56,110 bases of DNA from Bdellovibrionales bacterium (GTDB lineage Bacteria > Bdellovibrionota > Bdellovibrionia > Bdellovibrionales > UBA1609). How positions within the stretch are numbered: the first letter of the stretch is position 1; the number at the start of each line of letters is the position of its first letter. A program made the translations under genes and the position numbers. A model generated the notes under the pieces. That model did not search any database. It was not told the DNA's origin and saw only the letters and a list, made by a program, of their open reading frames with translations. Positions 8,274-53,228 of the stretch are shown in pieces. The DNA is taken from NCBI GenBank assembly GCA_023299885.1, contig JALZUS010000055.1, forward strand, positions 1 through 56,110, given 5' to 3'.

Positions 8274-9338
8274 ATGAGTTTATTTAAAGTTACTAAAGTG
8301 GTGAGAATGTTTGCGTGTATCTGTGTGCTTGTAGCCTCGACGGTTTCACAGGCACAGCATACTGAAGGAAGCATAGAAAGAGTATTTAATAGAGATACGA
8401 CTGAGCTGCCTGTTTTGCAAAATGGTTTAGCATGGCAGCTCCTTAAAGATGGACATCGCTTTGCTGATCCTTCGCTTTATCAAGTAGTTAGCACAAAAGG
8501 ACTTAAAAATAAAGTAGTCATTGCTCCAAACCTTTCAGAGCTGCCCGCAGTGCCAGAGCGGTTTAAGTGGGTCAAGGTTGGTGGCTCGAAAAATAAATAT
8601 AAGCTTGTCGAAGCCCCGATAATTATGATTAACAAATTTTATGTTGATTCTCTTGCGGGTACATTTAATGCATTAAATAAACCTGATGCCTCTGATAACG
8701 TTAAACAAATATTAGTATTTCTCAGAAGAGCAATGAAGTTTTCTATTAATGATTCACTTAGACTCTTAGGCTTAAATTCTGAATCAGCTAATAGATTAAG
8801 TTCAGCACTTACAGAGCAAAGGTTTTTCGACTCAGATATTAATGTCTTAGACATTGAAATTGCCAAAGTTTTAAAGCTATATAATATTTCTTACAGTGAA
8901 GCTGATGTAAAATTTAGTAACTTTAATAACTCCAGCCAACCAAATTACGGGTTAGAGGCTAAAGGCTTTAAAGCCGTGGACATGATGGCTGATTTGATTG
9001 CTGCTAGACATACTTATATCGCATCATTCGAGTATTCTACTGGCAATGAAAGCAGCTTAACTAGCAGTCTGCAACGCATTTTGCCAAGATTGCTCTCTAA
9101 TTCTTTGCGTAGAGCTGGCTATTCTAATATTGATGCCAAAAAAGTAGCGGCTTCGATACTCAAATCAAGTGATACTGAAACTGCCTCTGCGAGCATACGT
9201 GCTAGTGACAATTGGCAGTGGGAACAAAAAGGCCAAGTCCTAAGAATTAGTGAGGAAAGCTCTCGTGAAAAAGTCAAAAAAATAAGGAAAACTAAAAGCA
9301 CCACTATAAGTTTATGCTCTAAAGCTTTAGATGGCTAA
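8274..9338 (+). CDS. Hypothetical secreted protein (~354 aa)
   Basis: ATG at 8274 gives the signal peptide MSLFKVTKVVRMFACICVLVASTVSQA. The ORF extends to TTG 8217. No motif recognised. Confidence 0.55.
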   Translation: MSLFKVTKVVRMFACICVLVASTVSQAQHTEGSIERVFNRDTTELPVLQNGLAWQLLKDGHRFADPSLYQVVSTKGLKNKVVIAPNLSELPAVPERFKWVKVGGSKNKYKLVEAPIIMINKFYVDSLAGTFNALNKPDASDNVKQILVFLRRAMKFSINDSLRLLGLNSESANRLSSALTEQRFFDSDINVLDIEIAKVLKLYNISYSEADVKFSNFNNSSQPNYGLEAKGFKAVDMMADLIAARHTYIASFEYSTGNESSLTSSLQRILPRLLSNSLRRAGYSNIDAKKVAASILKSSDTETASASIRASDNWQWEQKGQVLRISEESSREKVKKIRKTKSTTISLCSKALDG

Positions 9339-9377
9339 GTATTAGCTGTAAGGTTATTTTTTCAACCCAATAGTTCT

Positions 9378-9407
9378 AGCTCAGAGCCTTTTTTAGATCT
9401 CTGAGCT
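9378..9407 (+). terminator. Hairpin downstream of the 8274-9338 gene (possible terminator)
   Basis: Stem AGCTCAGAG (9378-9386) pairs with CTCTGAGCT (9399-9407) around a 12-nt loop. The downstream tract is only weakly T-rich. Confidence 0.35.
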
Positions 9408-9468
9408 TAATAATAAGATAAAAATACCATCCAGCAATCTCTACTAGATTAAGCTCTACCCTTTTAAA

Positions 9469-9599
9469 ATATCCTCATAGAAAGCGCCATAAGTGCCACA
9501 TAAAGAAACTAAATGGATTTTCTAGTATCCATAAATTTTCACAAGGCACTTCTTCTGTTTCATTAAGGCCACCTTTATAAAAAACATGGTGTGGGAAAT
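9469..9599. repeat. Direct repeat copy 2 (~131 nt): 3' end of the M24 remnant, carrying a 1-nt insertion that breaks the frame
   Basis: Aligns with 5637-5766. An extra A on the minus strand changes ...LWILEIHLV... to ...LWILENPFSFFMWHLWRFL*. Confidence 0.85.
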
Positions 9600-9929
9600 C
9601 GCCAACCCTATGGCCCTTCATATTATTGTTAAGTTTATAACCCATCTCTTCTGATATCTTTGATGCGTACTCGTAAAGGTCTATTCCACTTTTAGATTCT
9701 TGTTTCCAAACATCAGCTGTCTTTTGAAAAACCTCTTTACTAGCAGCTATAATAGCCTCAAAGCCTTTATTTTCTCCGACAACAAATGTCTCCCCGTAAT
9801 CCCCTTCATGGCCGTCAAAGACAGGGCCAATATCTATCTTCGGGCCTCAAAAAACTTTTCTTCGCTAAAAGCTTGTCCTGTAGATTGCTGCAGGCTTACC
9901 GATGGTTTGTTGATTGTTTCTTGGCTCAT
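9469..9929 (-). pseudogene. Degraded M24-family (creatinase/prolidase-fold) metallopeptidase gene
   Basis: ATG at 9929 overlaps the Sua5 stop (ATGA) and opens a 31-codon frame ending in TAG. A different frame then encodes IDIGPVFDGHEGDYGETFVVGEN...KGHRVGDFPHHVF...LWILE, which are M24-like metal-ligand motifs. It has no start codon, lacks most of the N-terminal half and has a frameshifted tail. Confidence 0.6.
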
Positions 9930-10876
9930 ATTCTAAAGTCCCATGTCGAGGCTTTTTTAAGCCTATTGTTAATAGCGTCCCAATCTTCTGAGGACTGTTT
10001 GTCTATTGGTAAAATCAACAGGTCAGTTTCTTTTTTTGAATACTCTCTAAAAGCTGCATACATTTGTCGTGCAAAAATTTGAGGGTCTAAAGAAAGCTCA
10101 ATAACTTCAGCTGTTTTTATACTTTCATCATTAACTTTAGCAATTGTATCCTCTTTATTAAAACTACGATTAACCAATGCCAATGGCTTATTAGGCTGAT
10201 AGTGATACTTTAATTGTCCTGGAGCCACGCTCCCCTCGTAGGTTTTTTTTATTGCCCCTACATCTAAACCTAAAACATCTGCAATTTGTGCTGCAGTCAC
10301 TTGCCCTGGGCGCAATATATTAAGCTCGTTGCTTTTTGTTATTTGTAAAATAGTAGACTCAATACCCACTTCACAATCTCCGCCATCAACGACTGGCACA
10401 CTGTCTTCAAACTCTTTTATTATATGCCTACTACTTGTTGGGCTTGTCTTACCAAATTTATTAGCACTAGGGGCTGCCAACGGCCCGACAGCTTTAATTA
10501 TTTCTAAAAACTTTGGATGATTAGGTATTCTTAGCGCAACAGTATCTAAGCCCGATGTAATAATATCATTTACTTTATCTGATTTAGGCAAAACTAAAGT
10601 GAGGGGCCCTGGCCAAAAAGCTTTTGAAAGTTTATGTACTATTTCTTCTGGATAATAAGAAACATAGCTTTTAAGCTCTTCTAGGCTTGAGATATGAACA
10701 ATGAGTGGGTCAAAAAATGGGCGCTCTTTTATAGAAAAAATATTTTTTAAGGCCTCTTCAGAATTTATCGAACCGGCCAACCCATAAACAGTTTCTGTTG
10801 GCAGCGCTACAACCTCATTTCTGCTCAAAAGACTGACAGCTTCTGATGTATTTATAGGTTGTTTAAAATTCTGCAT
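9926..10876 (-). CDS. tsaC: L-threonylcarbamoyladenylate synthase (Sua5/YrdC type, with the C-terminal Sua5 domain)
   Basis: PTETVYGLAG, LIVHIS and WPGPLTLVL are YrdC-fold motifs. The 316-aa length is consistent with the long Sua5 form. Confidence 0.85.
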   Translation of the reverse strand: MQNFKQPINTSEAVSLLSRNEVVALPTETVYGLAGSINSEEALKNIFSIKERPFFDPLIVHISSLEELKSYVSYYPEEIVHKLSKAFWPGPLTLVLPKSDKVNDIITSGLDTVALRIPNHPKFLEIIKAVGPLAAPSANKFGKTSPTSSRHIIKEFEDSVPVVDGGDCEVGIESTILQITKSNELNILRPGQVTAAQIADVLGLDVGAIKKTYEGSVAPGQLKYHYQPNKPLALVNRSFNKEDTIAKVNDESIKTAEVIELSLDPQIFARQMYAAFREYSKKETDLLILPIDKQSSEDWDAINNRLKKASTWDFRI

Positions 10877-10988
10877 AAAACTCTTTATCTTTAGCCTTCT
10901 TTTTAAGCAAACAAAATAAGCTTACGGACGCACCACAGCGACTAGAATAGTGTTTTTAAGCCCTTACTATGTATATAATTTACTTATT

Positions 10989-12743
10989 ATGATTGATAAA
11001 ATACCTATAATTGGAATCGCGCTTGTTATGGCCTTTATTGCCGGCAAGCTTGCTCGTTACTTTAAAATACCAAAGGTGAGTGCCTATATTTTTACAGGCC
11101 TTATTTTAGGTCCTTCTGTACTCAACTTAATTACTCATGAGTTTGCTGAAAGCTTTCATATTATTAATGAAATCGCTTTCGGGCTTATCTTGTTTAATAT
11201 TGGTGGAGAGTTCCATAAAGGCTTACTTAAAAAAGTGACAAGGCTTAATGTAAAATATGCTTTAAACCTCTGCTTTATTATTTTCTTTTCTGTAGCTGTA
11301 CTCTCTTTTGGCTTTACCTATTTTGATGCCAACTTAGATGTTACACAAAGAATAGTTCTGGCTTGTTTTCTAGGTATTATTGCTATTGCAGCAGCACCTC
11401 CAACAACTTTACTCGTTATTAAAGAGCTCGAATCAAAAGGACCTATTACTCAGTCCATCATGGTTTACTTAGCTACTGGCACAATTATAGCTATTGTCGG
11501 CGCCCATGCTTTAACATTCTTTTTTCAAGATATCGGCATGATAACTGGTGGCGGAAACGCTGGTCCATTAGTCCATGCTGCTTTATTGATTTGGTCTGTT
11601 TTAGGCTCTATTTTAGCCGGAAGCCTCTTAGGGTTTTTATTTAGCGTATGGGAGCAAAAAGAAAATAACGAAGCCGAGCTTCTTTTTGCCTCTATAGTAG
11701 TTATTTTACTAGGCTTTACAGTTTCTCATTATCTACACCTAGAGCCTTTATTGGTTAGCTTATTTATGGGTTTTGCTGTTGTAAACTGCTCACCTACAGG
11801 GAAGTCACTCCACGTAAGAATTAAAGGCATGGGCTTAAGCATATACGCACTCTTCTTTTTAATTGCAGGTGCTCATATACACTTACAAGAGCAATACAAA
11901 ACTGTTGGCCTTGTGGGCTTAGTTTATATTCTTTCTCGTAGTGTCGCTTATTTATTTGGAGCCAGGCTTGCTGCAAAACTTTCTGGAAGCCCTGCTAAAG
12001 TGGGCGGAGCCATGAGTTTAGCTGTCCTTTCACATGGTGGAGCAGCTATGGCCATTACTGCTCAATTACAAAAAAATAGTAATGATGAAATTTTTGCGAC
12101 CATCTCTACTATTATTTTATCAGCTGTATTTATTTTTGAACTTGGCGGCCCATTAGTATTAAGAACTGTTTTAGTTAAAATGGGAGAAGTGAAGGTTGGC
12201 GGCTTACTCACAGGGACAGAGACCGGCTTAGCTTTCTACGACCTTATCCATAACTTTTTGACTAATATTGGGTTTATTAAGCCAGCTGAACATCATCAAA
12301 TTAAAACTATTAAATTACTTATTAACAGAAAAGTTTTTGCAATCGAGCAGTCTGCAAAAGTAAAAGAAGTTATTAACTTTGTAGATAAACACACTATGCC
12401 CATCTACCCTGTTATAGATAAAAATAATGCTTTTGTTGGCACTATTGATATTGCCAACCTTAAAGAGGTTATGTTTGACCCTTTTAGAGCTCCACTTACA
12501 AGAGCTAAAAAGCTTATCGGAAGCACTAACTATATTTCTGAACTCTCTTCACTCCAAGAAGCTGCTGATAGCTTTAATGAATCTGGCCAACAAGTACTTC
12601 CTGTTATCGATACAAGCAATCATAAACTTGTGGGTATGCTTTCTTATACAGATGTTGTTGTATCACTTAAAGGAACTGGTTTTCATGACCCTTCAACTAA
12701 AGACACTACAGAAGAACAAACTGCTAGTAAAAAGGACTCTTAA
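10989..12743 (+). CDS. CPA2-type cation:proton antiporter with a C-terminal CBS-domain pair
   Basis: About 12 hydrophobic helices (IIGIALVMAFIAGKLARYFKIPKVSAYIFTGLILGPS is a Kef/NhaP-like opening) are followed by two CBS-like repeats (MPIYPVIDKNNAFVGTIDIANL, QVLPVIDTSNHKLVGMLSYTDV). GTG 10950 is an upstream alternative start. Confidence 0.8.
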   Translation: MIDKIPIIGIALVMAFIAGKLARYFKIPKVSAYIFTGLILGPSVLNLITHEFAESFHIINEIAFGLILFNIGGEFHKGLLKKVTRLNVKYALNLCFIIFFSVAVLSFGFTYFDANLDVTQRIVLACFLGIIAIAAAPPTTLLVIKELESKGPITQSIMVYLATGTIIAIVGAHALTFFFQDIGMITGGGNAGPLVHAALLIWSVLGSILAGSLLGFLFSVWEQKENNEAELLFASIVVILLGFTVSHYLHLEPLLVSLFMGFAVVNCSPTGKSLHVRIKGMGLSIYALFFLIAGAHIHLQEQYKTVGLVGLVYILSRSVAYLFGARLAAKLSGSPAKVGGAMSLAVLSHGGAAMAITAQLQKNSNDEIFATISTIILSAVFIFELGGPLVLRTVLVKMGEVKVGGLLTGTETGLAFYDLIHNFLTNIGFIKPAEHHQIKTIKLLINRKVFAIEQSAKVKEVINFVDKHTMPIYPVIDKNNAFVGTIDIANLKEVMFDPFRAPLTRAKKLIGSTNYISELSSLQEAADSFNESGQQVLPVIDTSNHKLVGMLSYTDVVVSLKGTGFHDPSTKDTTEEQTASKKDS

Positions 12744-25867: not shown

Positions 25868-26410
25868 ATGAAGAAATATACTAAAAAAATCTGTCTCATT
25901 GGCCCAGAGGGCGTTGGCAAAACAAGCCTTATACGTCGCTATGTGGACAATAAGTTTGATGACAAGTACATCTCTACCATTGGAGTGAGCCTAAGTAATA
26001 AGCTTATAAAAGTGCCTGATAGTTACGACATCGAGCTTATCCTATGGGACCTGGAAGGCTTTACATCAAAGGGCTTACATTTTCCCACAACTTACCTTAG
26101 CGGCGCTTCTGGCTTTGTATTTACATGTGACATCAACAATGAAGATAGCTTTAGATCAACACAAAAAATATGTTCAGAGCTTTATACAAAATTTGAAGAC
26201 AAAGCTTGTTTCTCAGTAGCTTTAAATAAAACAGACTTATTGCAAGAAGAAGAGTCTCATCAGCTTAAAAAAGCACGAGAAATATTTAAAGACACTCCCC
26301 CTATTGATTTCATACCCACTTCTGCAAAACAAGATAATAAAGTGGGAGAGCTTTTTAGTCATCTTTCTAAATACTTAGTGGATTATGATATCCCCAATTT
26401 TAGATTTTAA
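25868..26410 (+). CDS. Small Ras/Rab-like GTPase lacking the catalytic glutamine
   Basis: G1 GPEGVGKT, switch I STIGV, G3 WDLEGF (Phe where Ras/Rab have Gln), G4 NKTD and G5 TSAK. Confidence 0.85.
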   Translation: MKKYTKKICLIGPEGVGKTSLIRRYVDNKFDDKYISTIGVSLSNKLIKVPDSYDIELILWDLEGFTSKGLHFPTTYLSGASGFVFTCDINNEDSFRSTQKICSELYTKFEDKACFSVALNKTDLLQEEESHQLKKAREIFKDTPPIDFIPTSAKQDNKVGELFSHLSKYLVDYDIPNFRF

Positions 26411-27486
26411 AGAAAGTACTTATAAGCACCAAATAAAATCACTCCAACCACTAGCGTTAAGAGCACATGCTTCTTATTAAGGGCCGGCTTCTCTTTAATT
26501 TCTATATTAGAAATATTTAATGTCTTATTTAGTGATTTTTCTATTTCTTCAGGAACACTACTCGTGTCTCCGTCAAAATTTCCAATAAAAGATTGATGCT
26601 CACTGCTCAATTGAATTAAAAGCTTTCGCATGCTTCCCTTTAATTTTGGACTAAGCTCGCCTTTAACAACTATTGCTGCCATCAAATGGCCCGATGAAAT
26701 AAATGAGATGGTAGAGTCTCCGTAATCTATAGAAGAAAGCTCAGCGTCCTCTTTACCACTTTCAATCCAGTCATTTACGAAATGTGTAATGGCTGAAAAC
26801 ATTCCACCAATCATGCTTTCTTGAGTTTCTTCTGCATGGCTGTCTTCACTGTGAGATGAGGCCACAACAACACCTGTTGCTTTATGTATAAGATAAAAAG
26901 ATTTTATATGACTTTGAATGCTTTCTTGAAATAATATTTCAGACTCACTTAAGCCTGTCATTTTAGATTTTATACGACGGCGCATAATATTAATAGGAAG
27001 AGCGCTTTCTACCTGAGTGTTTATTGTTTCATTAAGCTCTGCAAAAGCACTTTTTATATATTTAGAAATTAAAGTACCAATAATAGGATAGAGTATATCA
27101 ATGATTGTATCTTTTTCTTTCTGTATTTGTGTTTTTAAAGCTTTGCCTACAAAAGGTGAAAGCTGCTCTGTTAGTTTATTTTTTTGGTCTCTGTTTCTTA
27201 CAGAGCTAAATGCATCAGGCAAAACTGTTGATAGTATTTGAGCTAATTCTTCAGGGTTTGATTTTGCCTTTTCTTGCAATGCAGAAACTAAAAATTGATC
27301 AAAAAGCTCAGTTTTAGCCTCTGCAGACATAGATTGATTTATGTCTTTAGTGTTTGCAGAAATACTTTCTTGTAAGCGCGACAAATCATCCTGAAATAAA
27401 ATATTTTTTAAATCAGCAAACTTATCCTTCACTGGAGTGACCTTGGAAATGGCCTCCCCACTCTTACCTAGAATTTCTCTATGCAT
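26407..27486 (-). CDS. Tail-anchored membrane protein with a putative Roadblock/LC7-like (MglB-like) region
   Basis: C-terminal TM helix HVLLTLVVGVILFGAYKYF. Residues ~195-300 (FYLIHKATGVVVASSH...MIGGMFSAITHFVNDW...STISFISSGHLMAAIVVKG) resemble a Roadblock alpha/beta pattern by eye. The stop shares a TTAA overlap with the GTPase stop. Confidence 0.5.
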   Translation of the reverse strand: MHREILGKSGEAISKVTPVKDKFADLKNILFQDDLSRLQESISANTKDINQSMSAEAKTELFDQFLVSALQEKAKSNPEELAQILSTVLPDAFSSVRNRDQKNKLTEQLSPFVGKALKTQIQKEKDTIIDILYPIIGTLISKYIKSAFAELNETINTQVESALPINIMRRRIKSKMTGLSESEILFQESIQSHIKSFYLIHKATGVVVASSHSEDSHAEETQESMIGGMFSAITHFVNDWIESGKEDAELSSIDYGDSTISFISSGHLMAAIVVKGELSPKLKGSMRKLLIQLSSEHQSFIGNFDGDTSSVPEEIEKSLNKTLNISNIEIKEKPALNKKHVLLTLVVGVILFGAYKYFL

Positions 27487-27997
27487 TGGCTTCTTTAGCT
27501 AAAGACTTACGAGATCCAGGCCTTTTAATAGATCCATTATTAAACCTTAAGCTCATTTCAAGAAGTAAATCTGAAAAATCATCTTTTGACATAGAGCTAG
27601 CCTCTAGTTGGCTTATTTTTTCACTCATTGTTGTTTCTATTTTTTCAAACTTTGCTTTAGTTTTTTTATCATAGCTTGCAATTTTATCTTGAACTAGCTT
27701 TTCATTACTATCTACAGCGTTTAAAAGTCTTTCTTTTAAACGGGACAATTGGTTTTGATGCTTCTCTTGAGAGTCTTTTAACTTTTTAGTGAAGGACTCA
27801 TTAAGCCTATCTGTTTTATTTGCTGATTTTATTTTAAGATCTTCTAATGATTTTGCATTAGCTGACATTAAGCCATTGAGTTCTTTAAAAACCTCATCGA
27901 GTTCAGTTTTTATTGAGTCTAATCTAGACTCATAGTTACTCATTTCTTCGCCAAAAATAAGGCCCTTAATTTGATCAATTTTATTAACTTTTGACAT
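27479..27997 (-). CDS. Coiled-coil protein (172 aa)
   Basis: Heptad-rich, Lys/Glu-rich sequence. The 3' end overlaps the downstream gene's start by 8 nt. Confidence 0.6.
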   Translation of the reverse strand: MSKVNKIDQIKGLIFGEEMSNYESRLDSIKTELDEVFKELNGLMSANAKSLEDLKIKSANKTDRLNESFTKKLKDSQEKHQNQLSRLKERLLNAVDSNEKLVQDKIASYDKKTKAKFEKIETTMSEKISQLEASSMSKDDFSDLLLEMSLRFNNGSIKRPGSRKSLAKEANA

Positions 27998-28033
27998 ATT
28001 TTTATATACCTTTGAAATTAAATAATTATGCTA

Positions 28034-29272
28034 CTATTTATTGCACACAGCTAAGGCAGATGCATTCAATAAATCAACTTTTGAAACTGGTTTTTGTATA
28101 AAGGCCCTAAAACCCTTACTGAGCGCTTCTTGCTGGTCGTTTTTTGAAACATTTGCACTCAAACAAAGCGCCGGTATTGGTTTTTGACCATTTTCAGTCT
28201 CCCAGCCTCGTATCCTCTCAATAAGCTCTAAGCCGCTTAACCTAGGCATCCTTAGGTCAATTAATACTAAGTCTAATGTTTTGTGATGCTCTAAAAACTT
28301 ATCCCAGCCCTCTAGGCCGTCTTCAGCAAAGCTAACGTCAGCCCCCGATTTAGAAAAAAACTTTTCAAAAACAAAACGATTATCTGGATCGTCTTCTACG
28401 ACCAATAAACTTTTACCCGACAAAACAGAAAGGTCAGCTTTATCTAGTAATACTTTTTCATGCACACTATCTTTATTCACTTTAAGTTGTGGCAACTCAA
28501 TATCAAGCTGAGTCCCTTTGCCAATAGCACTATTAATTTTTATGCGGCCATCTAATTGCTTAACTAGCATGTTTACTAAAGATAGCCCCAGGCCCACTCC
28601 TGTCCTTGAAATAGTCTCAGGGCTTTGCACTTGATAAAAAGGTTCAAAAACACGACTTAAATCGTCAGGGCTCATGCCAGCCCCCAAGTCCCTAACAACA
28701 ACATTCAGCGACCCATCATCTATGCTTACGGCAACGCTACAATCTTGCACTCCAGAGTACTTAAAAGAGTTAGATACTAAGTTAGATACAATCTGTCTTA
28801 AAAACTTTTTATCAGTAATAAAATTAACATCTGCTGTTTCATCACAATAAAGTTTTAGTTTATTTTTACCCTTAGTAGCTACGATAGATAATTCATCTAC
28901 AAGCTCATTGAAAAACCCTTTTAAATTAAATGAAGTAGGCGTTGCTACTAACTGATTATTTTCTATTAAGCTTATATTTAAAATGTCTTCGATGAGACTG
29001 TTAAGGTGAGCTGAAGCTGACTGAATTTTACTCAAGTACACATCTAATTGTTTTTTTATGATATCGCCTTCAAGGTCTGACATTAAATCTGCACACCCCA
29101 AAATAATATTAAGTGGGGTCCTTATTTCATGAGAAACAGAAGCTAAAAACCTATCTTTAGTTTTTGATAGCTCATTATGATAGCTTGAGTTTTCTTTAAA
29201 TGAGTCTCTTTCTTTTTTTAGCTGAGCAATTTGCTGCTTGAGCTGCTTAATATTTTCTTGAGTTTCTATCAC
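28034..29272 (-). CDS. Hybrid histidine kinase (coiled coil - HisKA - HATPase_c - receiver) with no TM or sensor domain
   Basis: H-box SHEIRTPLNIILG, N-box IVSNLVSNSFKY, G-boxes VRDLGAGM and GVGLGLSLV. The receiver shows LLVVEDDPDN...LVLIDLRMPRLSG. Confidence 0.9.
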   Translation of the reverse strand: MIETQENIKQLKQQIAQLKKERDSFKENSSYHNELSKTKDRFLASVSHEIRTPLNIILGCADLMSDLEGDIIKKQLDVYLSKIQSASAHLNSLIEDILNISLIENNQLVATPTSFNLKGFFNELVDELSIVATKGKNKLKLYCDETADVNFITDKKFLRQIVSNLVSNSFKYSGVQDCSVAVSIDDGSLNVVVRDLGAGMSPDDLSRVFEPFYQVQSPETISRTGVGLGLSLVNMLVKQLDGRIKINSAIGKGTQLDIELPQLKVNKDSVHEKVLLDKADLSVLSGKSLLVVEDDPDNRFVFEKFFSKSGADVSFAEDGLEGWDKFLEHHKTLDLVLIDLRMPRLSGLELIERIRGWETENGQKPIPALCLSANVSKNDQQEALSKGFRAFIQKPVSKVDLLNASALAVCNK

Positions 29273-29565
29273 GGAACCACTTCTTTGGTATAATTATTGA
29301 TGGCATATTCTAGGTGATTAATTGTTTTAGTTAATTCCTCGTGGTTTTCTTCATCAGAATATTTTTCAAGCAAACCACCTATAATAGTAATTTCATTAAA
29401 ACCATAAACAGAGCCCGTGCCTTTCATTTTATGGCCAATATCGTAGATTTCTCTCACATTCTTATTGCGGAGTGCCGTCTTTAAAGAAGCTAAATCTCTA
29501 TGCCTCCTACCGATAAAGAGTGGGAAGCCTTCTATTAGGTCTTCTGGCACTTTGACTATAAACAT
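29269..29565 (-). CDS. Hpt (histidine phosphotransfer) domain protein
   Basis: HKMKGTGSVYGF phospho-His motif. ATG 29565 is preceded by GGAG at 8-nt spacing (GTG 29592 is the alternative). The stop overlaps the kinase start. Confidence 0.75.
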   Translation of the reverse strand: MFIVKVPEDLIEGFPLFIGRRHRDLASLKTALRNKNVREIYDIGHKMKGTGSVYGFNEITIIGGLLEKYSDEENHEELTKTINHLEYAINNYTKEVVP

Positions 29566-29620
29566 ATAAGAAACTCCATATTTGCATCTCACTTAAAGCT
29601 GAGGTTATACTTTTAACACA

Positions 29621-30322
29621 ATGATACAAAGTGATATACAACAACCTCTTATTTTAGTCTTAGAAGACCAGCCAGACGCTTCGTTTGCAATAACTAAGGC
29701 ATTAAAACCTGAATTTAACTGTATAGAGGCTGGTGATATCAAAACAGCCATGACACTACTTGGTATGCATAGTTTTGACGCCTTCCTTTTAGACCTTAAC
29801 CTGCCCGATGGCTCGTCGTATAGCTTTGTAGAACATCTTAAAAACTTAAAAGATTATAACGATAAACCCATTTTAATACTAACTGCGAGCGATGATATAT
29901 CTGAACTTGTTTTGGGTTTTGACTTAGGCGTTGATGATTTTATTACTAAACCCTTTAATAGCTTTGAGCTTAAGTCTCGAATGAAAGCTAGAGTTAAAAA
30001 ATATAATAATAAAAAAAGCAATGACTCTATTAAAGTGCACCAAAGCGTAGTTATTAATAATAGCAGCTTTGAAGCTTTAGTTTCTAACCCAGAAACTAAA
30101 GAGCAAAAGAAAGAAAAGCTAACACGTATTGAGCTTAAAATAATAAACTTATTATACAAAAGCTCGCCAACACCCTTAACAAGAGATTTTATAGGTACAA
30201 ATATTAGTGACACTGAACATTTTGATGAGCGTAAAGTAGATCAACATATTAAAAACCTTAGAAAAAAACTGCATCCACACTCAGTTATTCATAGCTCTTA
30301 TGGCGTAGGCTACTATATTTAA
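29621..30322 (+). CDS. OmpR-family response regulator (receiver + winged-helix DNA-binding domain)
   Basis: LVLEDQPD, FLLDLNLPDGS, ILTASDD and KP define the receiver. The C-terminus has LTRIELKIINLL...VDQHIKNLRKKL...GVGYYI. Confidence 0.85.
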   Translation: MIQSDIQQPLILVLEDQPDASFAITKALKPEFNCIEAGDIKTAMTLLGMHSFDAFLLDLNLPDGSSYSFVEHLKNLKDYNDKPILILTASDDISELVLGFDLGVDDFITKPFNSFELKSRMKARVKKYNNKKSNDSIKVHQSVVINNSSFEALVSNPETKEQKKEKLTRIELKIINLLYKSSPTPLTRDFIGTNISDTEHFDERKVDQHIKNLRKKLHPHSVIHSSYGVGYYI

Positions 30323-30324
30323 TA

Positions 30325-30798
30325 TTATAAACTAAGCTCTCTCACTTTGTATTTAATCTGATTCATAGTTAAAGGCTTTTGCCAGTGAGCAATATGATCA
30401 AAACACTTTAATGATTTCAAATTAATTTCAGACTCTTTTAAGCTTGAATATGTAATAAGCCTTGCAGGCTTTACATCTTCATTAAAAATAAGCCCATCCA
30501 GTTTTTTTAAAACCTCATCGGCATTCATATCACCTAAGTGCCAGTCGATAACAATAAGGTCAGGCATAATTATCGGTATCACCTCTAAGGCTTCGGCGCC
30601 TGACATGCAGTATGAAATATTGCTGTTTGTTTTTTTCAAAGCCTTACTGACCGGGCAAACAGCATCTATGTCATCTTCTACAATTATAATTTTAGACTTT
30701 TTATTTATAGCCTCTGGCTTATCATCGATAAATTGAGGCATACTATTTGCCTTCCACTTAATTTTTGAAGAGGCTTTTTCTGAAAATAAAGACTGCAT
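30325..30798 (-). CDS. Stand-alone receiver-domain response regulator
   Basis: IIIVEDDIDA, LIVIDWHLGDMNADE and ITYSS...KP. No output domain. Confidence 0.75.
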   Translation of the reverse strand: MQSLFSEKASSKIKWKANSMPQFIDDKPEAINKKSKIIIVEDDIDAVCPVSKALKKTNSNISYCMSGAEALEVIPIIMPDLIVIDWHLGDMNADEVLKKLDGLIFNEDVKPARLITYSSLKESEINLKSLKCFDHIAHWQKPLTMNQIKYKVRELSL

Positions 30799-30965: not shown

Positions 30966-30995
30966 AAAAAAAGCCAGGCCGCAGCCTAGCTTTTT
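30966..30995 (-). terminator. Rho-independent terminator downstream of the 31016-31870 lipoprotein gene (hairpin flanked by an A-run and a T-run)
   Basis: Stem AGCCAGGC (30972-30979), loop CGCA and stem GCCTAGCT (30984-30991) with one mismatch. The flanking A-run becomes a U-tail on the minus strand. Confidence 0.55.
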
Positions 30996-31015
30996 CATTG
31001 ATGAATACTTCAGAA

Positions 31016-31870
31016 CTACTGATGTCTTTTTAAAGCACCATTATCTAAATTTGCATCTGTCTCTTCAGGAGCTATAAAATTAATTTCGATTGTCATTGAA
31101 TCTCTCTCTGAATCAAAAATATTATTTTCAGCATTTACAGTTGAATTAACAATTTTGTACTCAGAGTCTAACTTCAAACGCTGGCTTTCAGCTCTTAAAG
31201 CTTTAATTTCTTCTGGGCGGTTTTGTATAGCTGCGATCTCTGCTTTAATTTCAGAAATAGAGTTCAAAGCTTTTACAGACGGTACATCACTACTGTCATC
31301 AGAAAGTAACATCTTCTGAAGAGTTAACTTATTTCTTAGGTCTTCAAGGTCTGCTTCTGCATTCTCAGTATGGTCTTTTTCTTTTACGTCAGCTTCAATA
31401 ATTAATTCTTCAGCATGCTCAGCCATCATAAGGCCAGATTGAATTTCAGTATCTACAGCTTTAACCAAAGCATCTTCTCTATTGGCCGCATCCATAATTT
31501 CTTGAAGCTCTTTTCCTTTATGTGGAGACATAAGGCCTCTATCATCAGTAGCCCAAGCTCCCACAACATCATTTTTAATTTCAGCCAAAGAGGCTACATT
31601 AATTTTATTAACTTCCACAGCTTCTTCTACTGTCAGCCCATTGGTTGATGGACAAGTCACTTTTTTAAAGCGTTCTGGATCAAGATCATTAGGACCAACA
31701 ATACAACCAGAGAAATCAGCTTCATTTTGGCCAGCAGTAAAAACTACGCTTGAAGCCACTAAATCACCGTTTTGCTCAGTAAATATTTTATTACCCATTA
31801 CACTTCTGTTTTCATCAGAACAAGCCACTACAAATAATGTACTTACTGCTAATAAAGCTATTTTTTTCAT
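31016..31870 (-). CDS. Hypothetical acidic lipoprotein (284 aa)
   Basis: Lipobox in MKKIALLAVSTLFVVACS. The C-terminal half is Glu/Asp-rich and coiled-coil-like. Confidence 0.6.
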   Translation of the reverse strand: MKKIALLAVSTLFVVACSDENRSVMGNKIFTEQNGDLVASSVVFTAGQNEADFSGCIVGPNDLDPERFKKVTCPSTNGLTVEEAVEVNKINVASLAEIKNDVVGAWATDDRGLMSPHKGKELQEIMDAANREDALVKAVDTEIQSGLMMAEHAEELIIEADVKEKDHTENAEADLEDLRNKLTLQKMLLSDDSSDVPSVKALNSISEIKAEIAAIQNRPEEIKALRAESQRLKLDSEYKIVNSTVNAENNIFDSERDSMTIEINFIAPEETDANLDNGALKRHQ

Positions 31871-32117: not shown

Positions 32118-32193
32118 TGGCGCAACTGGGAGGACTCGAACCCCCAACCCCTTGATCCGAAGTCAAGTGCTCTATCCATTGAGCTACAGTTGC
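32118..32193 (-). tRNA. tRNA-Arg (anticodon UCG), CCA encoded
   Basis: The minus-strand sequence GCAACTGTAGCTCAATGGATAGAGCACTTGACTTCGGATCAAGGGGTTGGGGGTTCGAGTCCTCCCAGTTGCGCCA folds as a 76-nt cloverleaf. It has a 7-bp acceptor, GCTC/GAGC D-stem, CTTGA/TCAAG anticodon stem, loop CTTCGGA and a GGGGG/CCTCC T-stem with a TTCGAGT loop. Confidence 0.95.
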
Positions 32194-32247: not shown

Positions 32248-32658
32248 CTACTTTTTCTTTTTCTCATGCTTTGCTGTCACTATAGTTTTAATATTACCAC
32301 GCACAGTAAAGTCACCCTCTACTTTTATGTAGCGTGGGTCCAATAACTCTATAAGATCGTCTATTATGTTATTAGTTACATCTTCATGAAATACTTTTTT
32401 ATTTCTAAAAGTATTTATGTATAGCTTTAAAGACTTAAGCTCGACACACCACTTGTCTGGCACATACTTAATATTAATAGTTGCAAAGTCTGGGAACCCG
32501 CTGCGCGGACAAAGACATGTAAATTCAGGGCAACTGAATTTAATCTCATAATCCCTAACCTGGGTTCTGTTTTCAAATCGTTCTAATTTTGCTTCTTCGA
32601 TGGCTATTTCGCCGTATAATTTATCGCTCATGCCATTTTTATACTGCAAGAGAGACAT
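32248..32658 (-). CDS. queF: NADPH-dependent 7-cyano-7-deazaguanine reductase (unimodular type)
   Basis: Catalytic-Cys context [14 protein letters not shown] and the QueF motif ELKSLKLY. The length is 136 aa. Confidence 0.9.
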
Positions 32659-32730: not shown

Positions 32731-34212
32731 CTATTGAGGGATAGGAACTGGCTCAGGCATTGGCTCTGGCGAAGGAGCTGGTGCTGGAGGATTAGGCCTA
32801 GATGCATCTAAAAGCCTTTTAACAACAGTCAGAACAGTCTGAGGGCGAGTCGTTGTGTTGCTGGCAGAGAATGCATTTCTGGCCGCTTGCTGCCAATCAC
32901 GTGGGATAGGCTTAGTGAAGTCATTCCACTCTGTTGTAATCTGCTGGTCATAAGCTGTATATGGAAGCTTTCCATCAACTAGTTTCCATACAAAGTCTGG
33001 GCGAGTTTGCGAGTACCACTCTCCGCCTACAATACGGCCATTTTTAATTTCTAGGTCATAGTAGTAAGTCACTTCTGTTACTTTATCTGAACCTGGGCCC
33101 ATATAAGTAGCTCGGCTTGGCTGAATACCCGCTGCATACTTAGCCTTCATTTCTATACCAACAACATAGTCATAGTCGCCACGGTAAGCCTGGTAAGGGT
33201 CATTGTAGTAATCTGTACGAGTTACACCAGCTTCTGCAATAGAGTCTGAGTAGTAACGTGTTTGTGGGTTGAAGTATTTATATGAGTAATCAAATACAGC
33301 ATAGTTCCATACTTCGTAATCATAGTTAGAATCGATCACTAAGTTTTGCTTATCTAAACCAATAACATTAGTAAGTGCTAAATGAAGACTTGCTGGGTTT
33401 GTATCAAAGCAAGCAACATCAGTAATACGGCCAGAGCCGTCCACAGCAGGGTCTTTTGTATTACAACGCCTACCAATAGCTCTGTAATCAGCCCTATCAC
33501 CAGAGAAAGTATAACTCACTAATGCTCTAATATCTTGAGGGTAAAAATTGATTTTTGTACCATTAGCAGAGGTCACAGTTACCGTGTTTTCTGGAGCCGG
33601 CAAAACACTGGCCGCAGCAGAAGTCCCTTCACAAGCCCCTTGCCATTTTTCAACTGTACCAAATGTTCTGTGGTAATAGTCCCCTGTCGACCACATAGCA
33701 TTCGTAATTGCAAAAGTTTGGTCGCCCACTAATAGTTCGTACTTTTCAGAAGGTGATAATAAATCAATAGCTGCCTCATCGCCAAAGCCTAGCATCGTGT
33801 CGCTGTTAAAGCGGCTATAGTAGTTACGATAGCAAACATAAGAGTCCTGCCCCTGGCAGTCGTTTTCTGTTGGGTTTTGCTCTGCTGATGTAAAGTCATT
33901 AGAACGGTAACGGTAAGCCAGACCACCAGAATAAAAAGCCCAGTAAAAATCAGACCAAGGCTGAAGGCTTGAACTTGCAGACATTAATCCTAAGCTTTCT
34001 GACTCTTCTAAGGTTCTTAACTTAGCTTCATAACCTAAAAGGTTATATGGGTCGTTATGCACATCTATAGGTGCATTAACTCGTAAATTTGAGTCATTCC
34101 AGTTACTTGTCATATTAATCTCAGACAAATCTATAACTTCTGCCTGAGCTGTAGACAAAGCTCCAAATGATGCCAAAAACAATCCTAGTACTAATACGAA
34201 CTTCATGCTCAC
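32731..34212 (-). CDS. Secreted protein with a Pro-rich C-terminal tail; tentative GP42/Pep-13-type transglutaminase (TGase_elicitor-like) homologue
   Basis: Signal peptide MSMKFVLVLGLFLASFGALSTAQA. YEVWNYAVFDYSY resembles the oomycete Pep-13 core VWNQPVRGFKVYE. A candidate nucleophile lies in WQGACEGTSAAAS. The tail is PNPPAPAPSPEPMPEPVPIPQ. The family call is unverified. Confidence 0.6.
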   Translation of the reverse strand: MSMKFVLVLGLFLASFGALSTAQAEVIDLSEINMTSNWNDSNLRVNAPIDVHNDPYNLLGYEAKLRTLEESESLGLMSASSSLQPWSDFYWAFYSGGLAYRYRSNDFTSAEQNPTENDCQGQDSYVCYRNYYSRFNSDTMLGFGDEAAIDLLSPSEKYELLVGDQTFAITNAMWSTGDYYHRTFGTVEKWQGACEGTSAAASVLPAPENTVTVTSANGTKINFYPQDIRALVSYTFSGDRADYRAIGRRCNTKDPAVDGSGRITDVACFDTNPASLHLALTNVIGLDKQNLVIDSNYDYEVWNYAVFDYSYKYFNPQTRYYSDSIAEAGVTRTDYYNDPYQAYRGDYDYVVGIEMKAKYAAGIQPSRATYMGPGSDKVTEVTYYYDLEIKNGRIVGGEWYSQTRPDFVWKLVDGKLPYTAYDQQITTEWNDFTKPIPRDWQQAARNAFSASNTTTRPQTVLTVVKRLLDASRPNPPAPAPSPEPMPEPVPIPQ

Positions 34213-44919: not shown

Positions 44920-47910
44920 TTATTTAATTTTACTTCTAAAAATTATATCAAAATTTGGATATGGAGCTGATCCCGAAGATCCACTCATGACACCTGTTGG
45001 TGCGGCCTGAATACCTTTTACCGCTTCATCAAAACCATTAGCATCTGGTACTGGCGTGTAGTTATAAGGCGCGCCCCCACCCACTTGGTTAGAGTACCTG
45101 ACATCAGTAGAAAAGTTAAAATTGAGGCCGCTACTCGGAGAGCCGTCATTAAACCTAACTGGTGTTGGGCCACCAGAACAAGTATTTGCCACACACATTA
45201 TCATTCTTGGTGGCAACGGGTCTGTAACTATAACAGAGCTATTGTCTGGACTCGCTTCCCCTTCGTTTCGAGTATTAATTATATATTCAATAGCAGAGCC
45301 TGGTATACGAAGCGGGCTTACAGTCCCTCTAACGGGATCAGAAATTAACACATTTAATTTCGTCGCTTTAATATCAACTACAGCATCAGTAATATTAAAT
45401 ACGCCTGCATGAGTATGAGTGATTGTACCCTCGGTACCTTCTTCTGCTGTAACAGTGTAAGACCACTGGCCTATAGCTGAAGTTGTTGCACTTGCGTATG
45501 GAAACTCATAAGTTTTAATAGCAAGGCCAGAGTCATTAACCTCAGTCATTAACTGATTATTTACTACAACATTACCAAGAGGATCTCTTATCGTTATCCT
45601 GGCAGCCGTAATATCGTAACTACCAAATGGGTCTGAAACATCAGACCTAAGATAAATTGTACTACCAGGAGTAAAATTTTGAGACAGCGCCCCAGCACCA
45701 AAAGCCGCATCATAAGCTTCTGTATTTTCAACTTTAATTACAGTGTTTGCATTTAAGTTAATCCTAAAGTTAACACCAACTCTTACCTCTCTATAGCGAA
45801 TTCTTTCTGCGACAGCTGTATTTAAATTTGTAACTCTAAGCCTTAACTGAGAACCTACAGGTATATTTACGGCCGAATTAAGGTCAATACCAAAGGTTAA
45901 AGTTTGCCAAGCACTACCGTTAGCAGAGTCATAAACGATTGTATCTGTACCAATAACACCAGCCGAAGAAGGGCCAACATAATCTAGTATAACTTCAACT
46001 GTCCTTACTGTCCCGGCCCCAGTCTCTCTCAGCTGAACAGGTATTGTAATTACTCCTGCACCCAACTCTAAATCCGTTTGCAGGGCCGGGCTTAAAGTAT
46101 ACAAACGATTGGCTCCACCATTAAGAATAATGTTTGTAGTGCTATTATTCACTAACCTATGGAGCACCCGACCTCCATTATCTTCTACATAAAGCTGTTT
46201 AACGCCCGAGTTAGGTACTAGTGATGGTGAAACGACAACACTAAAAGTTGATGGTGAAGCAGAAGACCCAATAGGCTCTCGCAAATCTGCAGTATTTGAA
46301 AAAGTATCCCCAGGGCTTACAACACCTAATACTGATAAATTAAAAACAACATCGACAGTAGAATTTCCAGGGACTGATATATTATCAATAGCCAATAAGC
46401 CATTACCATTAGGCCCCGTACCATTACCTGTAGAGTTATTCACAGCACCAGGAGGCAAACTCACTACACTTAAGTTTCCAAGTGCCGCCGGGATATTATC
46501 CCTTAACTGAGCTGCTGCGGCTCCTGCCGAGCTTGTATTAATTAAGCTCACTTTAAATTGTAATACATCACCAACATTCACTTCACCATTATTAATATCT
46601 TCAAAAGTCTTTGTACTTGTTGATATATCTGGGGCTATTAAATCGACTGTATCTGTTGCCCTGTTATTGTTTGTTATGTTGTCAAAATTAGTCCCTCTAA
46701 CTTCTGCTGTGTTTTGAAACTGAGGATATAAAGAGTTTTCTGGTACAACAGTCAAAGTAATAGGCGCAAAATCAGCATCATCGGCAACAACTTGAGTGCT
46801 TGTACAATTAACTGCTGGAGCTACAAAGTTACAGGTCCAGCCGGGGCCAGTTGCAGCCACATAATTTAAACCTGCAGGCAGCTCATCTCTAACAGTCGTA
46901 GTGCCTGACGTAGTACTCGGGCCATTGTTAGTTACTATGATATTAAAATCATTTTCTTCATTAAGGTTAAAATCACCATTATGTGTTTTTGAAAGAGTTA
47001 AATCACTCACCGGTGTATTTGTATTTAAAAAAGCTTGCACACCCAGCAAGACCAGGTCTTCACCAGCACTAAATGTTGATGTTGCACTTGTGTCCCCTGC
47101 AGACAGCACACTACTAATATCGTATTCATCCCAATCTATGCTGTAAAAGTCATTGCTAGTGCCATAAGTGTTAATTGTCGAGTTATACTGAGCATTAATC
47201 GGGTTTGCCGGGTTTGTCATAACTAGGCCGTTAGCAAAGATATTCTCAGTAAAGCCATTAAGAGCAGCAGAGTTTCCAGTGTCGCCTTCCCAAGAAAGAA
47301 CAGCAATCCTACCGCTTATTGGCGACGTAGGGATAACAAAATTATTAGGAGTAAAAATAACAGAGCTTCCACGAAAAAACTCCATACCATCATAAATATT
47401 AAAAACCCTTAAGTCTTCATTTGTGTTTTCATAAAGAACCAACAAAGCAAAACCAGAAAAAACAGCAGAAACAGCACAATGAGGTGCGCCAGTATTAACT
47501 TCTAGGCTACTTATTGAATAGCTACCATTTCCTGGCACTGAAGTTGTCACATCAGCATAGTTTTGCCAAAAATCATAGTCAGTCCCATTAAAAACAAAAG
47601 TATCTGAAAAACTTCTTTCTGCATTTACTGTACTTCCAGCAAAGGTCACTGTGTCATCAGAAGTAGATCCACTGCCACCCCAGTACAAATAAACTTTTTT
47701 AATTACAGAGCCAGCAGGAACACCTTCTACGTCAGCACTCACCGGACCAGTCGTTACAGCACAAGCATCCGTAGCGCTTGTTCTTAACGTGTTACCTGCA
47801 GTGACAAAGTTGATATTACCAGCAAAGGTTTCAAAAAAAGCAACCTGGTCAGCATAAGAAGAGGTAGCCATTAAAAAAGATAAAGTTATAAATAGCACTC
47901 TTAACTTCAT
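44920..47910 (-). CDS. Secreted 996-aa multi-DUF11 (conserved repeat domain) surface protein with a distinct ~290-aa N-terminal domain
   Basis: Signal peptide present. DUF11-type repeats are seen (DLTLSKTHNGDF...IIVTNNGPSTTSGTTTVRDELPAGLNYV and GDVLQFKVSLINTSSAGAAAAQLRDNIPAAL). The C-terminal domain SDPVRGTVSPLRIPGSAIEYIINTRNEG is shared with the 362-aa protein. The ATG overlaps the upstream stop by 1 nt. Confidence 0.75.
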   Translation of the reverse strand: MKLRVLFITLSFLMATSSYADQVAFFETFAGNINFVTAGNTLRTSATDACAVTTGPVSADVEGVPAGSVIKKVYLYWGGSGSTSDDTVTFAGSTVNAERSFSDTFVFNGTDYDFWQNYADVTTSVPGNGSYSISSLEVNTGAPHCAVSAVFSGFALLVLYENTNEDLRVFNIYDGMEFFRGSSVIFTPNNFVIPTSPISGRIAVLSWEGDTGNSAALNGFTENIFANGLVMTNPANPINAQYNSTINTYGTSNDFYSIDWDEYDISSVLSAGDTSATSTFSAGEDLVLLGVQAFLNTNTPVSDLTLSKTHNGDFNLNEENDFNIIVTNNGPSTTSGTTTVRDELPAGLNYVAATGPGWTCNFVAPAVNCTSTQVVADDADFAPITLTVVPENSLYPQFQNTAEVRGTNFDNITNNNRATDTVDLIAPDISTSTKTFEDINNGEVNVGDVLQFKVSLINTSSAGAAAAQLRDNIPAALGNLSVVSLPPGAVNNSTGNGTGPNGNGLLAIDNISVPGNSTVDVVFNLSVLGVVSPGDTFSNTADLREPIGSSASPSTFSVVVSPSLVPNSGVKQLYVEDNGGRVLHRLVNNSTTNIILNGGANRLYTLSPALQTDLELGAGVITIPVQLRETGAGTVRTVEVILDYVGPSSAGVIGTDTIVYDSANGSAWQTLTFGIDLNSAVNIPVGSQLRLRVTNLNTAVAERIRYREVRVGVNFRINLNANTVIKVENTEAYDAAFGAGALSQNFTPGSTIYLRSDVSDPFGSYDITAARITIRDPLGNVVVNNQLMTEVNDSGLAIKTYEFPYASATTSAIGQWSYTVTAEEGTEGTITHTHAGVFNITDAVVDIKATKLNVLISDPVRGTVSPLRIPGSAIEYIINTRNEGEASPDNSSVIVTDPLPPRMIMCVANTCSGGPTPVRFNDGSPSSGLNFNFSTDVRYSNQVGGGAPYNYTPVPDANGFDEAVKGIQAAPTGVMSGSSGSAPYPNFDIIFRSKIK

Positions 47911-53216: not shown

Positions 53217-53228
53217 CAATTAAAATCC

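Follow-up and report, generated by a model that had tools for sequence, protein, structure and literature searches.

A reduced and rearranged Group 1 Rup GTPase system of rare layout in a Bdellovibrionales bacterium

Introduction

How might a small G protein be wired to a bacterial His-Asp phosphorelay? The question is raised by a stretch of DNA from a Bdellovibrionales bacterium (contig JALZUS010000055.1, assembly GCA_023299885.1), which we analysed over its full 56,110 nucleotides (nt) and refer to below as the window. Seven genes at 25868-30798 encode a Rab-like GTPase, a tail-anchored protein of 359 amino acids (aa), a helical one of 172 aa, a hybrid histidine kinase without a sensor domain, an Hpt-like protein, a regulator of the OmpR type and a receiver. 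A first-pass annotation, made from the letters alone, had this gene content right, and it went on to propose that the locus may link a G-protein switch with a His-Asp phosphorelay by new means. That second proposal is not supported, because the same kind of system, including the link to a kinase, was described in 2014 (PMC4316618). What the locus holds is a variant of that system, the Group 1 Rup system, and one that is rare, reduced and rearranged; the system itself has been described only computationally.

The Group 1 Rup proteins, as Wuichet & Søgaard-Andersen (Genome Biol Evol 2014; PMC4316618) defined them, are members of the Ras superfamily with eukaryote-like G motifs and no Gln in G3, and the survey by these authors placed Rup closest to eukaryotic Rab, Ras and Rho. 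The partners of Rup are DUFY, a cytoplasmic coiled-coil protein, and DUFX, in which a conserved unknown domain is followed by a helix in the inner membrane and, in many cases, by OmpA at the C-terminus; the output protein, either a histidine kinase or of the GGDEF/EAL type, carries a conserved Gln in its N-terminal region (PMC4316618). The same authors proposed that the Gln which Rup lacks is provided in trans, drew a parallel with the conservon, and saw none of 121 Rup genes coupled to an MglB homologue (PMC4316618). A literature search with incomplete journal coverage found no experimental study of any Group 1 Rup component.

Results

Membership of the Group 1 Rup system

An open reading frame (ORF) check of the window found all seven genes at the coordinates first given for them. 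The first of these (25868..26410, + strand) encodes a 180-aa small GTPase that scored 94.7 bits against Pfam Ras, 65.5 against Roc and 37 against Arf, and whose closest solved structures were Rab21, Rab3 and Sec4 (E 2e-22). It was 41-43% identical to bacterial proteins named 'Rab family GTPase', and its score against bacterial Rups (133 bits, 43% identity) exceeded that against Rab21 (83 bits). The motifs read GPEGVGKTS (G1), YISTIGV (G2), WDLEGF (G3), NKTD (G4) and TSAK (G5). Alignment with relatives in the PDB set WDLEGF on WDTAGQ, which upholds the earlier description of a Rab-like GTPase with Phe at the catalytic Gln, the Ras Gln61 position. On these motifs the protein would belong to the Rup clade that lacks the G3 Gln.

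The 359-aa protein (26407..27486, - strand) had no Pfam or NCBIfam match. Comparison with the DUFX proteins of the survey described below gave E values of 1e-43 to 1e-59, and the closest DUFX in the species-genome set, from a Bdellovibrionales metagenome-assembled genome (MAG), was 41-44% identical. A word-indexed protein search had returned 6 homologues; the tiny family that this implied was overturned by an exhaustive profile search, which returned 4571 cluster representatives at E<=1e-3 and 1125 at E<=1e-30.

The 172-aa protein (27479..27997, - strand) is all-helical and of coiled-coil type, with weak apolipoprotein-like helical matches alone in Pfam and nothing significant in Pfam or NCBIfam. 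Comparison by phmmer and by hidden Markov model (HMM) related it to the product of the gene directly 5' of DUFX in surveyed loci (phmmer E 1e-4 to 1e-10), and the shared N-terminal DUFY motif IDQIKGLIFGEEM / VDQIREIIFGSQM is present. Judged by its sequence, this adjacent coiled-coil protein is DUFY. The N-terminus of DUFX (LKNILFQDDL / LRSLLLGREI) resembles that of DUFY, as seen in the window and in locus L001 (9391-9987), and the similar motif may serve interaction or assembly in both proteins. Because of the survey matches and the shared motifs, we identified the GTPase, the 359-aa protein and the 172-aa protein with Rup, DUFX and DUFY. The window has in common with Group 1 Rup systems a Gln-less WDxEG GTPase, a DUFY directly 5' of DUFX, a DUFX with the same conserved cytoplasmic region and a transmembrane segment, and a kinase in the locus.

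Conserved synteny of DUFX, DUFY and Rup

A survey of one genome per species gave at least 564 loci, of which 80 were retrieved, from Cyanobacteria, Campylobacterota, Bdellovibrionales, Chlorobi/Ignavibacteria and Bacteroidota, and analysed for ORFs and by HMM. A DUFX gene was found in 79 of the 80; several of the features missing from these loci correspond to contig ends. Rup stood directly 3' of DUFX on the same strand in 72 of the 79 loci, and DUFY directly 5' of DUFX in 67. The DUFX protein carried OmpA in 73, and a downstream protein with an N-terminal domain of ~110 aa, here called Nt, was present in 68, with Nt fused to a histidine kinase in 41. A second, independent set of 80 metagenome loci (JGI) had Rup following DUFX in the same direction in 68. 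Over both sets, which cover several phyla, DUFX was directly followed by Rup in 140 of the 159 loci with a DUFX gene.

The Nt domain (EY..., FPEL.G.E, F.LKG..R, Y.D) has no Pfam model. Its canonical position is N-terminal to kinase or other output domains, and it heads kinases, hybrid kinases and non-kinase proteins of 600-900 aa, often in two or three consecutive genes (L008-L085; for example L029, 10243-11787 and 12082-14868). The Gln that follows Nt is not strictly invariant: a 10-sequence alignment had His at this place in L036.

The synteny has a further form in L001 (9391-12387; L002 is identical), where DUFY is followed by a DUFX with BON and OmpA domains and then by an OmpR-type regulator at the usual Rup position. 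There was no GTPase or kinase within 10 kb of this DUFY-DUFX pair, which can apparently couple to a response regulator instead of a GTPase.

Reduction and rearrangement in the window lineage

The window departs from the canonical arrangement in its gene order, its domains and its Rup active site. Rup is convergent with DUFX, whereas the canonical order is DUFY>DUFX>Rup> or Rup>DUFY>DUFX. DUFX lacks the BON/OmpA part. The kinase is a hybrid without Nt-PAS that lies upstream of DUFY and is preceded by Hpt, and an OmpR regulator and a receiver are added. Lastly, the Gln position is taken by Phe, whereas His or Ser is the usual residue of the family there. An HMM of the Nt domain found nothing in the entire 56-kb window (best E 1.8), and the window kinase had neither a PAS nor an Nt domain in Pfam scans or in alignments with the kinases of L003 and L004 and with cyanobacterial Nt-PAS kinases.

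The seven-gene layout, including the convergent Rup, recurs exactly in L003 and L004 only. All seven proteins are 38-60% identical to their counterparts there, and the flanking genes are unrelated; because the seven genes are conserved despite unrelated flanks, the set is a conserved unit. Together with the DUFX-Rup adjacency of 140 in 159 loci, this bears out the earlier expectation that the GTPase is co-conserved with the operon. The window holds the most reduced version of the set. That is, the L003 and L004 kinases keep a PAS_4 domain that the window kinase lacks, and their receivers are longer than that of the window by an N-terminal extension of about 110 aa. HMM comparison found no Nt domain or remnant of one in that extension. 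Among the 80 JGI metagenome loci there was no window-type locus, with a convergent Rup and an Hpt; all the informative ones were canonical.

Two further loci show other arrangements. In L005, the closest relative of the window, the flanks are syntenic with those of the window and Rup is 86% identical. Here (8850-11290) Rup is followed in the same direction by a 167-aa DUFY' and a 304-aa DUFX' with no transmembrane segment, and these converge on a second, oppositely directed DUFY, at which point the contig ends. The arrangement looks like a duplicated or inverted pair that replaces the tail-anchored DUFX. Because the L005 Rup is co-directional with DUFY'-DUFX', the GTPase stays with the DUFY/DUFX pair despite the rearrangement. 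In L006, a Bdellovibrionales MAG, a 184-aa protein that starts at the Rup stop codon (9371-9925) gave a weak Nt match (E 3e-4), and may be a stand-alone remnant of the Nt connector. We refer to the group with Phe in G3 and no OmpA as a Bdellovibrionales-like subclade, of which L006 is a member; within it the window, L003 and L004 are wired to a full phosphorelay without Nt, and L006 keeps the weak Nt-like protein alone.

Active-site residues of Rup

The WDxEG signature was common to 77 of the 78 Rups that adjoin DUFX genes, its Glu taking the Ras Ala59 position. The Gln61 position was occupied by His in 41 of these 78, Ser in 13, Gln in 8, Phe in 5, Arg in 5 and other residues in 6. Phe was found only in the window, L003, L004, L005 and L006. 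A His at this position resembles the DxxGH motif of translation-factor GTPases. The canonical Rup G1 motif is GDFGVGKTS (L006-L085), in which a bulky Phe stands where Ras has Gly12; the window motif, GPEGVGKTS, aligns a Glu there. Locus L048 (9678-11092) has two tandem Rup genes after DUFX, the first of them with a degenerate G3 (WSITG).

We considered what these residues would mean for GTP hydrolysis by analogy with substitutions at Gly12 and Gln61 of Ras, with Rap and Rap1GAP, with the dual-finger TBC GTPase-activating proteins (GAPs) and with the HAS-GTPases. Glu at the first position together with Phe at the second should make intrinsic hydrolysis very slow, and the two residues should block an arginine finger of the Ras-GAP type. 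From slow hydrolysis and a blocked arginine finger it would follow that Rup is a long-lived switch or one that depends on a non-canonical partner.

Predicted fold of the DUFX domain

Three parts make up the window DUFX: a helical region in the cytoplasm, a predicted Roadblock/longin-like domain and, at the C-terminus, a membrane anchor. The anchor, residues 340-359 (HVLLTLVVGVILFGAYKYFL; 26410..26469, - strand), is the single hydrophobic stretch of the protein and lies at its extreme C-terminus, where a helix was predicted over residues 338-358. The protein ends at this transmembrane helix, which aligns with the transmembrane segment preceding BON/OmpA in homologue P0005; the periplasmic BON/OmpA part of canonical DUFX is absent. 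Most canonical DUFX proteins have a peptidoglycan-binding OmpA domain like that of MotB or Pal.

The earlier reading had also proposed a Roadblock-like region in the 359-aa protein, and we modelled the product of 26407-27486 with AlphaFold (AF2). Model 1 covered the whole protein from a 7-sequence alignment and had a mean pLDDT (predicted local distance difference test) of 55. Model 2 covered residues 100-335 from a 36-sequence alignment, with a mean pLDDT of 75 that rose to 96 in the β3-β5/α part. In model 1 the order of helices (H) and strands (E) over residues 181-296 was H-E-E-H-E-E-E-H, equivalent to α-ββ-α-βββ-α, and the topology was retained in model 2. The best 50 PDB matches of each model, obtained with Foldseek, were all Roadblock/longin proteins. 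Those of model 1 included p14/MP1 (LAMTOR2/3; 1veu_B, E 1.3e-4), MglB with MglA (6h5b_B), a Streptomyces Roadblock/LC7 protein (3kye), Mon1-Ccz1, Sec22b and TRAPP. Model 2 best matched the Sec22b longin domain (1ifq_B, E 6e-5, target TM (template modelling) score 0.78, root-mean-square deviation 2.9 Å over 135 columns), with AP sigma subunits, Mon1-Ccz1 (5ldd in the Foldseek results), Ykt6, TRAPP and Ragulator among its further matches.

The models thus recovered a predicted fold of the Roadblock/longin superfamily, an alpha-beta-alpha sandwich at residues 181-302 (26581..26946, - strand), and they support the topology of this class, a five-stranded beta-meander with one long helix on one side and one or two helices on the other. 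For the Roadblock-like region as first proposed, the fold stood in both models, at residues about 181-302, and a sequence match did not: no Roadblock/LC7 signal was present in DUFX by Pfam or NCBIfam, and the sole matches of the DUFX profile to PDB sequences were OmpA domains, contributed by longer homologues. The model shows the features of both the Roadblock type (N-terminal helix) and the longin type (C-terminal helices).

The strongest conservation in the DUFX family (M229..A232 I233..F236 V N D W I241) sits on the long central helix of the predicted domain. In known Roadblock/longin platforms the long central helix forms the dimer and GTPase-binding face, and a GTPase is present in most complexes that contain such domains (PMC3747258). 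The longin domains of SNAREs bind helices, not GTPases (PMC3747258), and Sec22b binds its own SNARE helix. Within a coverage of subscription journals that was incomplete, we found no literature after 2014 that links Rup or DUFX to Roadblock/longin proteins; the 2014 paper does not give this model-based assignment either, and it appears to be new.

A soluble kinase and the parts of a phosphorelay

The 412-aa hybrid histidine kinase (28034..29272, - strand) begins with a helix of about 35 aa, which is followed by HisKA, HATPase_c and Response_reg (receiver) domains in Pfam. Nothing else lies N-terminal of HisKA and there is no transmembrane segment, in agreement with the first-pass annotation of a hybrid kinase that lacks both a sensor domain and a transmembrane segment. 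Its best NCBIfam similarities were to TorS, LuxQ and ArcB. Like the phosphorelays of those three proteins, the window has a HisKA-HATPase-receiver kinase, then an Hpt and an OmpR-family regulator; unlike them, its Hpt is a separate small protein and its kinase lacks periplasmic, transmembrane or PAS input.

The Hpt-like phosphotransfer protein (29269..29565, - strand; 98 aa from ATG 29565) scored 22.0 bits against Pfam Hpt as a single sequence, below the cut-off of 24.6. With a profile of three orthologues, matches were obtained to the HPt domain of ArcB (E 0.0014) and to further HPt proteins. The motif H-x-M-K-G was invariant in the Hpt-like orthologues. The ORF called mechanically extends to GTG 29592. 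The start at ATG 29565 coincides with the start of the orthologue alignment, and with it the 55-nt spacer noted before between Hpt and the divergent OmpR gene is borne out.

The OmpR/PhoB-type response regulator (233 aa, 29621..30322, + strand; Pfam Response_reg and Trans_reg_C) has 50-52% identical orthologues at the same position in L003 and L004. The single-domain receiver (157 aa, 30325..30798, - strand; Pfam Response_reg, 31.1 bits) showed 47-49% identity to those of L003 and L004 by tblastn, over the receiver part only, and a frameshift and truncation check of its gene revealed no trace of the N-terminal extension upstream. The translations carry the motifs SHEIRTPLN, LIDLRMP and GHKMKG. 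Going by these motifs and domains, the parts of a multistep His-Asp phosphorelay (HisKA His, receiver Asp, Hpt His and terminal regulator) all appear to be present.

The minus-strand genes are tightly packed: a 4-nt overlap joins Hpt to the kinase, 36 nt separate the kinase from DUFY, and the stop region of DUFY overlaps the start of DUFX by 8 nt. The TTAA stop/stop overlap of the GTPase and 359-aa genes was found where it had been reported, at 26407-26410. Gene calls made independently on three other metagenome contigs, which carry an identical 359-aa protein, gave the same 412-, 172-, 359- and 180-aa products.

Flanking features of the window

A terminator-like hairpin on the minus strand (30967..30996), a consensus match only, has a 13-pair stem followed by a T run. 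It is 3' of the upstream gene 31016-31870 and, on that strand, forms the module's left boundary. This hairpin was the sole exception in promoter and terminator scans that were otherwise not above shuffled sequence.

Elsewhere in the window, a tRNA-Arg gene with anticodon TCG (32118-32193, - strand), the only tRNA, adjoins a 136-aa ORF (32248-32658) that is QueF-type reductase-like by eye only. A 493-aa secreted-looking protein (32731-34212, - strand) matched Pfam TGase_elicitor (PF16683, E 1.5e-26) and has a Pro-rich C-terminal tail; this family is known mainly from oomycetes. Three consecutive genes at 44920-54317 (- strand) encode DUF11-repeat proteins of 996, 1769 and 362 aa, which are probably large surface proteins.

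Discussion

We consider it fairly probable that the locus represents a divergent, rearranged Group 1 Rup system, one in which a DUFX/DUFY platform docks Rup and a sensor-less kinase reads the complex and signals via Hpt. In this model DUFX would be anchored in the inner membrane, with most of the protein in the cytoplasm, and its Roadblock/longin-type domain, probably dimeric, would form a docking platform for Rup together with DUFY. DUFX would then either set the nucleotide state of Rup, as a co-GAP or an exchange factor for guanine nucleotides (GEF) in the manner of MglB, Ragulator or Mon1-Ccz1, or retain Rup-GTP at the membrane, with Rup acting as a long-lived or partner-dependent switch. 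The hybrid kinase, presumably co-transcribed, would read the state of the Rup/DUFX/DUFY complex, protein partners being the sole inputs that it could have. Phosphate would pass from the kinase receiver to Hpt, and from there to the OmpR-type regulator, which would act on transcription, and to the single receiver, which may be a sink or a second output. Because the canonical Nt domain sits at the N-terminal and usual input end of the enzymes, the signal should run from the Rup module to the enzyme.

The close translational coupling of the kinase to Hpt and, via DUFY, to DUFX speaks for this reading. Several observations weigh against it. Nt, the presumed connector of Rup and kinase and the proposed donor of the Gln, is absent in the window lineage; because the window has no such connector, we infer the coupling of Rup to the kinase from operon structure alone. 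Because Rup is encoded on the opposite strand and has an upstream region to itself, its co-regulation with the operon is not assured. DUFY-DUFX pairs occur without Rup in L001, L016, L026, L045 and L073, and thus the pair can function without an adjacent GTPase. Lastly, the Roadblock/longin assignment comes from models of moderate confidence and has no sequence-level match in Pfam or the PDB.

The missing connector and the separate strand and upstream region of Rup would also suit a different wiring. In this reading, which we think unlikely, the phosphorelay is upstream of Rup/DUFX/DUFY or independent of them, and the OmpR regulator or the receiver controls the expression or activity of the module, which has a membrane output of its own, for example in the envelope or in polarity, and does not feed the kinase; the OmpA domain on most canonical DUFX proteins suggests an envelope-anchored structural role. 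Set against it are the kinase itself, which lacks a sensor of its own, the 41 canonical loci in which the kinase carries Nt at its N-terminal input end, and the tight operon that holds kinase, DUFY and DUFX together in three lineages.

The DUFX domain raises a separate question, because the best match, Sec22b, is a SNARE longin of the helix-binding kind (PMC3747258), DUFY is helical, and DUFY-DUFX pairs occur without Rup. The domain could be longin-like or GAF/profilin-like and serve autoinhibition, ligand sensing or coiled-coil binding, while Rup acts elsewhere, for example on the output enzyme. We rate this as less likely still than a reversed or parallel wiring, given that most Roadblock/longin complexes contain a GTPase (PMC3747258), that a GTPase gene lies directly 3' of DUFX in 140 of 159 loci, and that MglB, LAMTOR and Mon1-Ccz1 are also among the best structural matches. 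The specific proposal that the DUFX domain is a true Roadblock/longin GTPase platform, which would bind and regulate Rup directly and drive the phosphorelay in the window lineage, is one that we hold tentatively, judging it slightly more apt to fail than to stand.

A further question is whether the locus belongs to a GTPase system that is already named. The actinobacterial conservon comprises CvnA, a kinase-like sensor with transmembrane and HAMP regions, CvnB, a Roadblock protein (PF03259), CvnC, a DUF742 protein, and CvnD, an MglA-type GTPase. Like the window, it brings together a small GTPase without standard catalytic residues, a Roadblock-fold partner and a histidine-kinase-type protein. 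The GTPase of the window is Rup/Rab-like, whereas that of the conservon belongs to MglA Group 2; DUF742 was absent from all locus proteins in Pfam and NCBIfam scans, as had been claimed. In the window the predicted Roadblock-like domain is part of a membrane-anchored protein of 359 aa and gives no sequence-level signal, and the kinase is soluble, has no transmembrane or HAMP region and is part of a complete phosphorelay. MglA/MglB likewise pairs a Roadblock-fold protein with a Ras-superfamily GTPase, and MglB was among the Foldseek matches. MglB, in contrast to DUFX, is a free, Roadblock-only protein that matches PF03259 and has no membrane anchor or kinase operon, and MglA lacks the G3 Asp that the window GTPase keeps.

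True membership of the conservon or MglA/MglB family is therefore highly improbable in our view, even with a kinase, a Roadblock fold and a small GTPase in common and with MglB and the Streptomyces Roadblock protein among the structural matches: the GTPase has retained the G3 Asp and has its nearest relatives among Rab/Ras, PF03259 and DUF742 gave no match, the kinase is a soluble hybrid and not of the CvnA type, and in the 2014 survey not one of 121 Rup genes was coupled to an MglB homologue (PMC4316618). The composition differs from both systems, as the first-pass annotation had it; the differences include the absence of PF03259 and DUF742, the Rab-like GTPase and the soluble kinase. That the GTPase is a chance neighbour of an orphan phosphorelay operon, as its convergent orientation and separate upstream region might suggest, is just as improbable and is contradicted by synteny, with the adjacency kept in L003, L004 and L005 and DUFX joined to Rup in 140 of 159 loci.

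The eukaryotic platforms Ragulator-Rag, Mon1-Ccz1-Rab7 and TRAPP-Rab1 resemble the window in predicted fold, in membrane tethering (Ragulator) and in a Rab-like client (PMC3747258). They differ in that the window has no detectable sequence homology to them, is bacterial, and has a two-component phosphorelay as its output, not vesicle traffic or mTORC1.

What is added here to the 2014 account is the predicted DUFX fold, the quantified synteny and the subclade with Phe in G3 and no OmpA. The predicted fold would revise the 2014 view that Rup, unlike MglA, has no Roadblock partner, and it would offer the family a concrete mechanism, as platform, GAP or GEF. The stripped-down set of the window, with seven small proteins, is well suited to rebuilding GTPase-to-kinase coupling in vitro. 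At least 564 species genomes carry a Group 1 Rup system and DUFX forms thousands of protein clusters, and DUFX, DUFY and Nt are all without a Pfam model. If the platform proposal is true, a partnership of a Rab-like GTPase with a membrane-tethered Roadblock/longin platform would exist in bacteria, across hundreds of species, and would not be limited to MglA/MglB, Asgard archaea and eukaryotes.

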